Source: an uncultured Verrucomicrobiae bacterium (GTDB taxonomy: Bacteria; Verrucomicrobiota; Verrucomicrobiia; Chthoniobacterales; UBA10450). From it: a stretch of 64,000 nt of DNA. The position numbers are program-made. The stretch lies in NCBI GenBank assembly GCA_963726745.1, contig CAVSDR010000003.1:192001-256000 (forward strand), read 5' to 3'. Shown in pieces: positions 36,001 through 39,000 of the stretch. Every line of letters begins with the position of its first letter. Within the stretch, counting starts at the first letter, position 1.

Positions 36001-39000
36001 GGGCCGGACTACGCGCGCACTTTCCAAGCGACCTACCGCGAGGTCGCCGAGAAAAATAACGCCACGCTGATCCCCTTTCTGCTCGAAGGTGTGGGCGGCA
36101 TCCGCGAGCTCAACCAGCCGGACATGATCCACCCGACCGCGAAGGGCCACGCGCTCGTGGCCGAGGTCGTCTGGCGGGTGCTCGAGCCGGTGCTGCGCGC
36201 GGACTAACGAATGAAGCTTCAAGATTGCACTGCGCTGATCACCGGCGCCTCCTCCGGGATCGGGCGCGAGTGCGCCCGGCAGCTGGCCGACCGTGCGCGC
36301 GTGCTTGTGCTGGTCGCGCGCCGGGGCGATCGCCTGGAGGAACTGGCGCAGGAACTCAGTGCCCGTCGTCCGGCGCTGGCAATTCACCTGCAGGTCGCCG
36401 ATTTGACCAAGCCGGACGCGGTCGCGGAACTCTGTCACTCGTTAGACCAATCCGGAATCGCGATCGATCTGCTGGTTAATAACGCCGGCGTGGGTGACCA
36501 GGGGAACGTCGCCGGCATCGAGGAAGCGAGATTAGCCGACATCATCCGCCTGAACGTCCTCGCCCTGACCGCGCTCACGCGGCGCTTGCTGCCAGGGATG
36601 CTCGCGCGGCGCCGCGGCGGGATCTTGAACGTGAGTTCGAGCGCCTCTTTCATGCCGATTCCCGGGATGGGGATTTACTCCGCGAGCAAGGCTTACGTGA
36701 CCAGTTTCTCCGAGGCGCTGCGCGCGGAAGTGCGCGGGCAAGGCGTGAGCGTGAGCGCGCTCTGCCCCGGGCCGGTGCACACGGAATTCAGCGAGGTGGC
36801 GCATCGGCCGGGGGAAAGCGGGAAGCTCGGGCCAGACTTCGCCTACGTCTCGGTCGAGGAGGTGGCGCGGGCGGGCCTGCGCGGGATCGAGCACAACCGC
36901 GCGCTGGTCGTCCCCGGGATGGCGATGAAACTGGCGATGCTGCTGGTGCGCCTGACGCCAATGCCGTTGATGCGGCTGGCGTTTTCCCTTTCCCCGGCCA
37001 GCGAAAAAATAGCCGACGAGATGCAGGAAAATTTCTTCCAGACCGAGCTCGATCAGCCACACCCGGAGCGGACGCGCGCAATCTTACAGGCGCATCCGCA
37101 GGTGCGGGAACTGATCGGCCGGAATCCATGGACCGCGGTGATCATGCTCGCGGTGCTCTCGGCGCAGACCGCGCTGGCTTACTCGTTAGGCAAACTCGGC
37201 GGCGGCTATTGGTGGCTCAGCCTGCTGGTCGCGCTCGGCTTCGGCGCGTTCATGAATCACTGCATGTATGTGATCATCCACGACGCCACGCATAATCTGA
37301 TCCTGAAGCGCAAGACGGCGAACAAGTGGATCGCCGTCCTGGCCGATTTGCCGAATCTCGTGCCCGGCGCGATTGGCTTCGGCGTTTACCATCTGCAACA
37401 TCACGCGCACCAGGGCGACTACGATTACGACGCGGACATCGCCAGCCGCTGGGAGGCGCGCCTGATCGGCGACAAGTGGTATCGCAAGGCGCTTTGGCTG
37501 CTCTTCTTTCCCTTCTTCCAGCTGACCCGGCCGCCGCGCTTGAAAGCGATCACGATGTGGAGCCGATGGAGCTTCGTGAATCTAGCCAGCGCGATCACCT
37601 ACGACGCGTTGATCGTTTATTTTTGCGGCTGGGCCGGCTTGCTCTATCTGGTCTTCTCGTTCGCATTTTCCATCGGCCTGCACCCGGTGGGCGCGCGCTG
37701 GATCCAGGAGCATTACACCTACGACGCCGACCAGGAGACGGCGAGCTACTACGGCCCGATCAATTTCCTCGCGCTCAACGTCGGCTACCACAACGAGCAC
37801 CACGACTTCCCCTCGATCGCTTGGAATCGCCTCCCGCGGCTGCGCGCGCTGGCGCCGGAATTTTACGACACTTTGCGTTACCACACTTCGTGGACGCGGC
37901 TGCTGATCGAGTTCATTTTCGATCCGCGCTACACGCTCTTCTCGCGAGTGGAACGGATCGAAGCAGGCAAAGTGGCGCACGACCGCGCGCGGCGCGAAGC
38001 GGTCGCCTAAAGCGAATCGCGTCGGCTGGGCGCTAGACCGCCGCGCGACGACGAGCCACGCCCCAGATCAAGCCGAGACCGCCCATGGCGAGTAACGCCA
38101 GCGACCCCGGCTCCGGCACCGAGGTACCATTAAGCGACACGCGGTTGCCGTTGTCGTCGACCAAGAAAGTGGTGAAGGTGCCGCTGGCTGGCGGGGGCTG
38201 CGCGAAGCTGCTGTCGGTCGTAAGCGAGCCAGCGGTGACGACGACGGTATCGCCCGACGTGACGCCGGGTCGGTTCCCGTAGAAGTAGAGATCATTCGCG
38301 GTAAGCGCGCCGCCCACGAAGCCGGAATTGGCGACCGTCAGGGTCGTGGCGGGACCACCGTTCACCGAGAAGGTGATCGTGCCGGAAACGGCCGGATAGC
38401 TGTTCCCGAAAATGTTGCCCACGTTCGCGAAAACCGGGAGGGGCGCGAGCGGCGTAGTCGCGGTAACCGTGTAGGTGACGGCCTGCGCCAGCGTAAAGGT
38501 AAACGGCGAGCCGTTGCCGCCGGTGATCGTGAGGTTAGCCTGACCGTGGGCCGAGCCCACGAGAAACGCGGAGACGGCTAGGAGACAGAGGAAAGGGCGG
38601 AGGAAAGTCATCAGTTCAGTCGGTTGAGTGGTCGTGGTGTCCCGGAAAGGGTCTGCACGGTAAACGGAAGCGGTAATCATGCCACCGGAAACGGCGGAAA
38701 AAAACGGAGGGACACGCGGTCGCATCCCTCCGTTGAGTTTCGCGAAATCCGGAACGTCTACGCGCTCAATACTTCACCGAACAGCCGTATGGCTTGGTGT
38801 TGGGATTGGAGACTGGCTTACCGGCGAGCGACTCTTCCAGGGCGACCTTCACGTAATTGGTCGCGCCGTCGATATCGGCCGGATTAGCGCTCGGTTTGCT
38901 GTCGATCGCGCCCTCGTAGATCACTTTGCCCTCGGGATTGATGATGAACATGTGCGGCGTGTTCTTGGCGCCGTAGACCTGGCCGGTCTTGCCGTCCGGA

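Follow-up and report, generated by a model that had tools for sequence, protein, structure and literature searches.

Genes at the locus

The window analysed here is a stretch of 64,000 nucleotides from a contig of an uncultured Verrucomicrobiae bacterium of soil. Plain positions follow the numbering of the window, positions preceded by C3 that of the contig, and the genome carrying the studied ORF is referred to as G000. Counts for the family concern the Verrucomicrobiota family to which it belongs (Chthoniobacterales, relatives of Ca. Udaeobacter), of which 151 genomes were compared.

On the forward strand, an open frame with an ATG start and a TAA end extends over 36211-38010 and encodes 599 aa as assembled. 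Reading of the frame and Pfam bear out what the survey had described, namely an N-terminal short-chain dehydrogenase (SDR) domain followed by Lipid_DES and FA_desaturase domains. The features of the locus are as follows.

35572..36207, forward strand: GDSL/SGNH (TesA-like) lipase gene, directly upstream of the SDR (Pfam Lipase_GDSL_2, E 2.2e-30)
36211..37012, forward strand: SDR gene (adh_short, PF00106, residues 7-195, E 1.2e-46)
36997..37020, forward strand: junction, site of a suspected extra base (sequence and comparison with a soil contig)
37021..38010, forward strand: gene of a DES1/DEGS-type sphingolipid desaturase (DES), 329 aa, starting at M271 of the 599-aa frame
37024..37131, forward strand: Lipid_DES N-terminal domain (residues 272-307; PF08557, E 1.2e-10)
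37210..37884, forward strand: FA_desaturase membrane di-iron domain (residues 334-558; PF00487, E 2e-28)
37279..37293, forward strand: histidine box 1, HDATH (residues 357-361; H87 and H91 of the DES part)
37390..37404, forward strand: histidine box 2, HLQHH (residues 394-398; H124, H127 and H128 of the DES part)
37789..37803, forward strand: histidine box 3, HNEHH (residues 527-531; H257, H260 and H261 of the DES part)
38766..39371, reverse strand: AhpC/TSA-type peroxiredoxin gene (Pfam AhpC-TSA, E 1.9e-16), the conserved downstream border of the DES site

A scan of 35300-38900 for promoters and terminators returned nothing exceeding shuffled expectation. As listed, the lipase ORF opens at TTG 35482, and an in-frame ATG at 35572 precedes a signal-peptide-like stretch.

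The short-chain dehydrogenase gene

Within the family, the SDR belongs to the core genes and stands alone, independent of DES. Single-copy orthologues with 52-64% identity are found in 136 of the 151 family genomes; they are about 260 aa long, end at query residue 257-264 or thereabouts and are located apart from DES, on other contigs or far off, e.g., in G068 and G054. The motifs TGASSGIG (residue 11), NNAG (residue 90) and YSASK (residue 156) are those of a classical SDR, and hydropathy indicates a hydrophobic helix at about residues 231-249, in the C-terminus. The GDSL lipase gene is a conserved partner of the SDR, the order GDSL-then-SDR being shared by G012, G008, G025, G030, G022, G024, G026, G033, G029 and G031.

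Regarding function, the substrate of the SDR may be a long-chain 3-oxo lipid. KDSRs are described as SDRs in which a Gly-rich motif is combined with a Tyr-x3-Lys site (available text of PMC9278070), and like Bacteroides KdsR/BT_0972 and eukaryotic KDSR, the SDR part is a classical SDR with both of these features. It differs from KdsR/BT_0972 in that its best NCBIfam match is mycolate reductase (200.6-203.7 bits, below the cut-off of 380), KdsR itself (NF049977, cut-off 400 bits) being absent among its 25 best NCBIfam families, and in that a KdsR-like gene is present elsewhere (C3:792271-793071). The SDR part is not the reductase of the sphingolipid cluster, which holds this separate KdsR-like SDR.

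A desaturase of the DES1/DEGS family

By its sequence, the C-terminal part is a bacterial desaturase of the DES1/DEGS family, as the survey had claimed on similar grounds. Lipid_DES (PF08557) is matched over profile positions 2-37 of 37, with 41 bits where 23 are required, and was recovered again by a whole-genome profile search of G000 (45.4 bits). Together with the FA_desaturase domain, the three histidine boxes complete the assignment: they are intact, with HDATH at residue 357, HLQHH at 394 and HNEHH at 527, and their histidines (HX3H, HX2HH, HX2HH) are invariant across 26 aligned homologues. Hydrophobic stretches are found in the DES part at residues 308-327, 336-357, 374-392 and 464-495.

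The desaturase has a conserved start of its own. A Met matching M271 (ATG 37021) is present in all 25 aligned stand-alone DES homologues and is the first residue in most of them; the nearest homologue, P0002 (335 aa, 85% identical), starts at the Met aligned with M271. In a database of 5.8e9 proteins, the best 120 of 2695 matches are DES-only proteins of 329-417 aa with 65-86% identity. Homologues are annotated by JGI as 'sphingolipid delta-4 desaturase' and by public pipelines as 'sphingolipid 4-desaturase/C4-monooxygenase', the ESM Atlas returned only the generic names GNAT and fatty acid desaturase, and NCBIfam gave 0 matches for P0122 and has no model for the DES family.

An AlphaFold model of DES (pLDDT 77.9, pTM 0.76) has as its closest folds the desaturase-like chains 8xks_K and 8xqw_M, AlkB (8sbb_A) and SCD1 (4zyo). 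Compared with the last two, which are solved membrane di-iron enzymes, the predicted fold is weakly alike (TM 0.52 for AlkB, E 1.4e-2 for SCD1). At the sequence level, the DES profile matched no PDB chain (best E 0.82), the copy searched containing no DEGS structure.

With eukaryotic DES1/DEGS1 and the bifunctional DES2/DEGS2, the bacterial protein shares the full-length two-domain architecture, the histidine box types, the membrane stretches and a size of about 330 aa. In contrast to the eukaryotic enzymes, bacterial DES adjoins genes for a soluble-type Spt-like protein and a GNAT (bCerS-like) instead of a CerS/KDSR set, and no cytochrome b5 domain was found in G000.

Junction between the two genes

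As assembled, the junction reads ...AGC GAA AAA ATA GCC GAC GAG, in frame into ATG 37021, while a TAG at 37010-37012 stands in the +1 frame. With one base fewer near 37001, the SDR frame would end at this TAG. Soil contig X2 record 12, which is 98% identical, has such a form: it is without one base at 37001, which places the TAG 8 nt ahead of the DES ATG. This contig of 151 nt (depth 4) comes from a different strain, covers 36979-37124 with 3 mismatches in 146 nt, and is both the sole reads-level evidence on the junction and the sole contig bridging it. Soil contigs were taken from three soil metagenome runs of one study (word shares 0.16, 0.11 and 0.00); in run X1, 99%-identical pieces lie on either side and cover is missing at 36907-37128, which makes that run uninformative for the junction. 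The suspected surplus base lies at a G in CCAGCG, outside the A6 run, and the other frame splits of the assembly are likewise not at homopolymers, a point that weighs against the reading as an error.

The survey had reported a same-genus genome with a TAG between SDR and DES, and this arrangement was found again in G012: there and in G008 (two junctions read), the SDR ends in TAG, followed by a spacer of 20-25 nt and then ATG. Within the genus, the order GDSL-SDR-DES with AhpC next is shared by G012, G008, G025 and G030; at this same site, DES is a remnant in G030 and decayed in G022, and in G033, which has no DES, AhpC comes directly after the SDR with no gap.

No SDR-DES fusion was found in the 33 other genomes of the genus, nor among the best 120 of the 2695 matches mentioned above or the top 150 out of 1.84e9 representatives. 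Of these 150, the 12 that reach 500 aa or more were all scanned and comprise nine tandem SDR-SDR proteins, one FA_hydroxylase-DES, one GT21-DES and one DES only. GT21 is the family of ceramide glucosyltransferases, and the GT21-DES fusion was counted for the sphingolipid link.

Frame errors are found elsewhere in the G000 assembly. Within the window, three genes are split relative to syntenic G012 (an ABC ATPase at ~35157, DsbD at ~40795 and PutA at ~50440), and a second private in-frame fusion joins a methyltransferase to PanC. Outside it, a split at C3:~794308 interrupts the bCerS-like gene, and three pieces make up an AddA-like helicase. Split matches to family ORFs amount to 32/174 in G000 compared with 76/1672 among family loci, figures that count ORF-to-locus pairs and not genes, that owe 17 of the 32 to one site, and that may be noisy owing to paralogues and to ORFs in the wrong frame.

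The 599-aa fused frame most likely stems from an error of one base in the assembly, a surplus base near 37001 having cost the SDR its TAG stop. This reading is based on the independence of the SDR, the own start of DES at M271, the soil contig, the other frame errors and the lack of fused forms. On the same evidence, the SDR-DES fusion that the survey had described is not supported as a biological feature, and preference goes to the caveat attached to it, that the single ORF could be due to faulty sequencing. Where a domain fusion is confined to one error-bearing MAG with long contigs, it therefore calls for a check at the level of reads.

Against this, a natural +1 insertion in the strain could have created a bifunctional 599-aa membrane enzyme, catalyzing for instance a 3-keto reduction on the sphingoid intermediate and then a 4-desaturation. 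The ORF is indeed open as assembled and all catalytic motifs are retained in both halves; SDR and DES are only 8-45 nt apart in relatives, so that one base change suffices; fusions of DES with pathway partners exist, as FA_hydroxylase-DES and GT21-DES illustrate; and an SDR is found 2.3 kb from DES in clusters of the Beijerinckiaceae type. A real fusion is nevertheless unlikely, considering that none is seen among 34 genus and 151 family genomes or the top matches of both protein sets, that the SDR core gene exists without DES while a KdsR-like SDR of its own belongs to the cluster, and that the assembly contains many other frame errors, including the second private fusion. Moreover, with its own ATG at a conserved position, DES could be made separately anyway.

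Distribution and sphingolipid gene clusters

Taking the two genes separately, relatives of DES are present in 69 of the 151 family genomes. In a phylum-wide sample of 401 genomes, only four had Lipid_DES, namely G000, two family members and one outsider, in agreement with the survey's view that DES is common in the family and rare in the phylum. None of 14 control genomes gave a Lipid_DES match; Caulobacter vibrioides, one of that set, matched other families.

The survey had further placed DES beside Spt and bCerS homologues in relatives. This holds in 17 of 20 family loci, with roughly 1 kb between DES and the Spt-like gene and 3-4 kb between DES and the bCerS-like gene. Among the named loci with DES (n=80), Spt-like genes are present in 56, bCerS-like genes in 51 and FA_hydroxylase in 44, and the distance between DES and Spt-like genes is 1-4 kb across family loci and named loci. 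The proposed tie of the DES1-type enzyme to bacterial sphingolipid clusters can also be widened, since DES is found in such clusters beyond the family, in Alphaproteobacteria (among them Beijerinckiaceae), Saprospiraceae and an Opitutales MAG. As judged from sequence and gene neighborhood, the link between DES and sphingolipid synthesis is well supported.

In most relatives, DES belongs to a cluster that further comprises a fatty-acid hydroxylase, an Spt-like 2-amino-3-ketoacyl synthase, CDP-alcohol transferases, a bCerS-like GNAT, a nucleotidyltransferase and a KdsR-like SDR. The Saprospiraceae locus L138 has in one row a CDP-OH transferase, DES, FA_hydroxylase, PAP2_3, Spt, GNAT, an epimerase and inositol-1-phosphate synthase, and its Spt reaches 689.9 bits, above the NCBIfam cut-off of 640. 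It is the only one to do so: the Spt-like protein of G000 scores 318.7/640 (NF047600), 303.6/500 (NF047599), 253.4/670 (NF047603) and, to a comparable degree, 344.5/426 (bioF), and those of G068 and of an alphaproteobacterial locus display the same below-cut-off pattern. Likewise, the KdsR-like SDR of the cluster has 152.5 bits in G000 and 158.6 bits in its G068 orthologue, against a cut-off of 400. The bCerS-like protein (about 375 aa; Acetyltransf_1, E 1.6e-10) adjoins the Spt-like gene and has no NCBIfam model; counterparts with 31-38% identity are found beside Spt-like genes in Alphaproteobacteria, Saprospiraceae and Cephaloticoccus. Its GNAT similarity and gene context make it a candidate bCerS.

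The cluster of G000 has its bCerS-like gene at C3:793802-794928 and its Spt-like one at C3:800320-801531, in the same region as the KdsR-like SDR gene. DES starts at C3:229021, about 565-571 kb from this cluster, which matches the distance of 566 kb noted in the survey. FA_hydroxylase is absent from the G000 genome.

The trio Spt-bCerS-CerR is said to be often clustered in the available text of two papers (PMC11334938; PMC11087976). Similarly to this Caulobacter-type set, the relatives' clusters pair an Spt-like synthase with a GNAT of about 375 aa, and those of Saprospiraceae also hold an epimerase-family reductase. Unlike it, Udaeobacter-type clusters have a KdsR-like SDR in place of the epimerase-type CerR, and a desaturase is not part of the described pathway. 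The product of the bacterial pathway is called dihydroceramide, bacteria making this compound rather than ceramide according to the available part of PMC10191378.

Proposed function of the desaturase

The probable explanation of the locus is that it holds two adjacent genes whose fusion is an artefact, and that DES is a sphingolipid desaturase working after the dihydroceramide synthesis of the cluster. Gene 1 (36211 to ~37012), always found behind a GDSL lipase gene, would encode a short-chain dehydrogenase (about 262 aa) that depends on NAD(P), and gene 2 (37021-38010, 329 aa) a membrane di-iron, O2-dependent sphingolipid desaturase of the DES1/DEGS family; both are probably co-transcribed. 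In a sub-lineage of the genus, DES has moved out of the cluster to the site between SDR and ahpC. The Spt-like/bCerS-like/KdsR-like cluster, at 786-802 kb of the contig, would supply dihydroceramide, which DES most likely desaturates or 4-hydroxylates. In the first case, it would take two hydrogens from C4-C5 of the long-chain base to yield a sphingosine-type ceramide; the alternative would be hydroxylation at C4. Substrate, product and electron donor of DES are inferred, and domains, motifs, gene order, distribution, the restriction of the fusion to this genome and the frame errors elsewhere are observed.

It is very unlikely that the relocated DES of G000 is a relic or acts on a lipid other than ceramide, for example an acyl chain or a different amide-linked lipid. 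Such a reading would fit its distance of ~565 kb from the cluster, a bCerS-like gene in two frames as assembled, the loss or degradation of DES at the very same place in G030 and G022, and the lack of Spt within 10 kb in the Chitinophagales homologues that are nearest to this DES clade (14/17 Bacteroidota loci, in a quick IQ-TREE tree with midpoint root where the 'noSpt' labels of the genus loci L001-L010 are meaningless, the flanks being only 1.5 kb). However, the gene is intact, with none of the 100-plus positions that are invariant in the family altered, and shares 70-78% identity with the cluster-embedded copies of relatives. The split of bCerS is explained more simply as one assembly error among many, and G000 does have the Spt-like, KdsR-like and other genes of the cluster. 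Sphingolipid synthesis, moreover, does not require genomic clustering, as noted for Bacteroidota in the available text of PMC11334938.

Implications for bacterial sphingolipids

DEGS1 is listed as an 'early eukaryotic' gene family in the table of a 2026 review (available part of PMC12993136), and literature searches, whose coverage left out most subscription journals, found no paper on a bacterial DES1/DEGS homologue. There are slightly better than even grounds for regarding DES1-type desaturases as regular parts of sphingolipid pathways in at least three phyla, represented by Ca. Udaeobacter-type Verrucomicrobiota, Alphaproteobacteria including Beijerinckiaceae, and Saprospiraceae. If so, abundant soil bacteria would make 4-unsaturated (sphingosine-type) or 4-hydroxy ceramides together with phospho- or glyco-derivatives. 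Eukaryotes would then not have invented the DES1 step, and the bacterial 'ceramide' would in some cases be something other than dihydroceramide. This raises the question of the direction of transfer between bacteria and eukaryotes. With its place in the Spt/bCerS-like clusters of soil lineages that are very common, DES is a candidate enzyme for the formation of unsaturated or 4-hydroxylated bacterial sphingoid bases, which would bear on the interpretation of soil sphingolipid biomarkers.

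The open reading frame and its domains

The single open frame at window 36211..38010 (+) comprises 599 codons from ATG to TAA. As the survey's finding had it, ORF reading, Pfam and motif search place in it a short-chain dehydrogenase (SDR) followed by a DES1/DEGS-type sphingolipid desaturase (DES) with three histidine boxes:

Residues 7-195: adh_short (Pfam, E 1.2e-46)
Residues 272-307: Lipid_DES (Pfam, E 1.2e-10; 41 bits vs cut-off 23)
Residues 334-558: FA_desaturase (Pfam, E 2e-28)
Residues 357, 394 and 527: histidine boxes HDATH, HLQHH and HNEHH, respectively (sequence motif)

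The SDR half bears the motifs TGASSGIG, NNAG and YSASK, and hydrophobic stretches of the DES half lie at residues 308-327, 336-357, 374-392 and 464-495. Between DES and ahpC lies a 230-aa PEP-CTERM protein (window 38033-38725, -), absent there in the same-genus genomes G012, G008, G025 and G030. Matrixin (Peptidase_M10) domains are found in two adjoining ~517-aa proteins (window 41490-43043, -, and 43542-45098, -).

Nature of the SDR-DES fusion

While the single ORF is present, the biological fusion claimed for it is quite probably an assembly artefact, a judgement based on six lines: protein searches, the DES start, the core status of the SDR, gene order in the genus, a soil contig and assembly quality. 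A search of 5.8 billion proteins (lengths 329-1049 aa; 8000 candidates scored) gave 2695 matches, the best 120 of which were all DES-only proteins of 329-417 aa covering 52-59% of the query, none with an SDR. An HMMER search run exhaustively through 1.84 billion representatives listed the best 150 proteins, and all 12 of at least 500 aa, a length able in principle to contain both halves, were scanned with Pfam. None of these 12 had the SDR-DES architecture (nine were tandem SDR-SDR, one FA_hydroxylase-DES, one GT21-DES and one DES only), and eight shorter representatives scanned likewise were each SDR-only or DES-only.

When 26 DES proteins are aligned, stand-alone homologues, the nearest match (85% identical) among them, carry a Met aligned with M271 (ATG at 37021), mostly as first residue, from which the N-terminal pattern MQxxF.Q.E.DQPHP... 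begins; DES keeps its own start codon whether the fusion is natural or artefactual. The SDR is a core gene of the family. Of 151 family genomes, 136 (93/99 of high quality) carry a single orthologue, 52-64% identical and with its end at query residue ~257-264, whereas DES is present in 69 of 151; the two genes are usually far apart. An upstream GDSL lipase, rather than DES, is the gene that constantly accompanies the SDR.

Genomes of the genus arrange these genes as GDSL lipase, SDR and DES, followed by ahpC on the opposite strand. In both G012 and G008, the SDR ends in TAG and a spacer of 20-25 nt precedes the ATG of DES; G008 is an unpublished genome, and the point rests on G012 too. The order is kept in G025 with a frame-split SDR, G030 has only a DES remnant at the locus, several stops interrupt the decayed DES of G022, and in G033, which has no DES, the SDR directly adjoins ahpC.

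A contig of 151 nt (depth 4) from the soil metagenome run X2 spans window 36979-37124 with three mismatches and one base missing at 37001; without this base, the SDR frame reads ...ACG AAA AAA TAG, its stop lying 8 nt ahead of ATG 37021. Against an artefact count the origin of the bridging contig in a different strain and the position of the suspect base outside any homopolymer; a natural fusion private to this strain is nevertheless unlikely, being without counterpart among the best matches of the 5.8 billion and 1.84 billion protein sets.

As regards assembly quality, the last line for an artefact, frames in the window were compared with those of G012, syntenic over 44 kb, in which each of the following is a single ORF:

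34849-35522 (-): ABC ATPase, split over two frames, break ~35157, inside a GC-dinucleotide run
39378-42042 (-): DsbD, split over two frames, break ~40795
48287-51671 (+): PutA, split over two frames, break ~50440-50490

In each case the pieces are complementary halves of one family (Pfam). A second private in-frame fusion, a 765-aa ORF at window 22562-24856 (-), joins a methyltransferase (residues ~290-410) to the pantoate-beta-alanine ligase PanC (490-762); G012 encodes the two separately, each in another frame. Elsewhere on the same contig (C3), the GNAT resembling bacterial ceramide synthase (bCerS) lies in two frames (-1/-3; C3:793802-794928, L042:17800-19040; break ~794308), with one ~375-aa ORF in relatives, and an AddA-like helicase near the sphingolipid cluster lies in three ORFs (C3:778693-781854, L042:2694-5855). 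Counted more crudely, family ORFs matched this genome 174 times, and in 32 cases the match was broken into two frames (17 of these 32 at the single bCerS site); for family loci the same count gives 76 of 1672, 53 of these 76 in two other few-contig genomes.

Association of DES with sphingolipid genes

The analysis supports the proposed tie of DES to bacterial sphingolipid synthesis and extends it to three phyla. In 17 of 20 family loci (20 kb around DES, mostly different genera), an orthologue of this genome's serine palmitoyltransferase (Spt)-like synthase, 71-78% identical to it, is found ~1 kb from DES, with the GNAT at 3-4 kb; G038, G029 and G031 depart from this. The row in the family genome G068 is DES, FA_hydroxylase, Spt-like, CDP-OH transferase, 377-aa GNAT, CDP-OH transferase, nucleotidyltransferase and KdsR-like SDR. 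Its DES and the next FA_hydroxylase form one 548-aa ORF (L048:9533-11179), which may again be an indel, since G068 is a few-contig genome of 63% completeness.

A scan with one genome per species gave at least 587 DES relatives among at least 599 pattern matches. The best 80, all named MAGs, include Ca. Udaeobacter, other Chthoniobacterales, Chitinophagales, Saprospiraceae, Beijerinckiaceae/Methylovirgula, Rhizomicrobium, a Rhizobiales bacterium and Cephaloticoccus. Among these best 80 of at least 587, DES has as neighbours an Spt-like gene in 56, a bCerS-like GNAT in 51 and an FA_hydroxylase in 44. By group, Spt-like genes occur in 41/46 Chthoniobacterales-type, 9/11 alphaproteobacterial and 3/17 Bacteroidota loci, the last in Saprospiraceae and not in Chitinophagales; several Spt-negative loci are short contigs. 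Three rows at distant loci were read by Pfam:

L145, alphaproteobacterium: Spt-like, GNAT-like, DES, then GT2 and SDR
L132, Cephaloticoccus: GT2/GT21, GNAT, Spt-like, DES
L138:9172-17520, Saprospiraceae MAG chromosome OZ244935.1: CDP-OH transferase, DES, FA_hydroxylase, PAP2_3, Spt, GNAT, epimerase-family reductase, myo-inositol-1-phosphate synthase

The L138 row resembles a full inositol-phosphoceramide-type cluster that includes a desaturase. Its Spt exceeds NCBI's curated equivalog cut-off (689.9 vs 640), so that the DES association has a genuine Spt as its anchor. Synthases of the Udaeobacter-type and alphaproteobacterial loci fall short of every cut-off and reach about the same score on bioF. 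DES fusions among library representatives (proteins P0132 and P0188), namely FA_hydroxylase-DES (515 aa) and GT21 (ceramide glucosyltransferase family)-DES (737 aa), point the same way as the Spt association.

In the genome under study, the cluster (C3:~786-802 kb) comprises a CDP-alcohol transferase, a radical-SAM protein, a KdsR-like SDR (best match NF049977, 152.5 bits vs cut-off 400), a nucleotidyltransferase, the two-frame GNAT and the Spt-like 2-amino-3-ketoacyl synthase. DES lies about 565-571 kb away, in agreement with the ~566 kb reported by the survey, and no cytochrome b5 domain was found in this genome. Just past the Spt-like gene, a YqcI/YcgG-family protein (C3:802383-803105, L043:6384-7106, -) exceeds the NCBI cut-off for the guanitoxin N-hydroxylase GntA model (260.8 vs 145 bits); a DUF1989 protein (C3:801779-802882, L043:5780-6883, -) overlaps its region.

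Predicted function

Since the cluster has its own KdsR-like SDR, the window's SDR is unlikely to be the pathway reductase. The protein belongs to the classical SDRs, and its C-terminal helix is hydrophobic. In NCBIfam it is closest to mycolate (3-oxo-lipid) reductase, at 203.7 bits for the SDR part by itself and 200.6 for the full ORF, under the cut-off of 380; its 25 best NCBIfam matches do not include the 3-ketosphinganine reductase KdsR. In Beijerinckiaceae/Methylovirgula-type clusters (Spt-like, GNAT-like, DES; L145:12432-13256, loci L139, L140, L141 and L150), an SDR ~2.3 kb from DES is ~30% identical to the window's SDR and to the KdsR-like SDR alike; GT2 lies between that SDR and DES in L145, the sole annotated locus of this set.

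By family membership, DES would be an O2-dependent di-iron membrane enzyme; its AlphaFold model (pLDDT 77.9) has desaturase-like chains as nearest structures, weakly AlkB and SCD1. The Spt-like, GNAT and reductase genes would provide dihydroceramide or an oxidised precursor, most likely the substrate of DES in view of its constant gene company. Acting on it, DES would yield a 4,5-unsaturated or a 4-hydroxy long-chain base, both of which fit the sequence. A division of labour in which DES is the desaturase and a separate FA_hydroxylase the partner is plausible because FA_hydroxylase adjoins DES in 44 of the 80 named loci (best 80 of at least 587); counter to this, no FA_hydroxylase was found in the genome under study.

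Assignment to this family has a precedent, since JGI already names DES homologues 'sphingolipid delta-4 desaturase'; DES extends a known enzyme family by one bacterial member. The literature searched, with most subscription journals outside it, yielded no description of a bacterial DES1 homologue or of its place in spt clusters. In the passages concerned, bacteria are said to make dihydroceramide, distinct from ceramide (PMC10191378), DEGS1 is listed as early eukaryotic (Table 1 of PMC12993136), and acyl-chain hydroxylation in Caulobacter is assigned to a DesA-family enzyme (PMC11324152). The bacterial pathway is given there as Spt, bCerS and CerR, a desaturase not being part of the description (PMC11334938, PMC11087976), whereas in the clusters here DES stands beside Spt-like and GNAT genes. 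The link of DES to sphingolipids gives a well-defined, testable prediction.

Distribution

Lipid_DES occurs in 4 of 401 genomes sampled across the phylum (the genome under study, both family members sampled and one outsider) and in none of 14 control genomes. Sequence comparison suggests that DES may have been transferred between soil phyla. Copies from Chitinophagales and other Bacteroidota (L072-L075, L083, L085, L113, L121, L124, L131), all with Spt absent within 10 kb of DES, form a clade inside the Chthoniobacterales copies, adjoining the group of the DES studied here, in a quick, midpoint-rooted tree.
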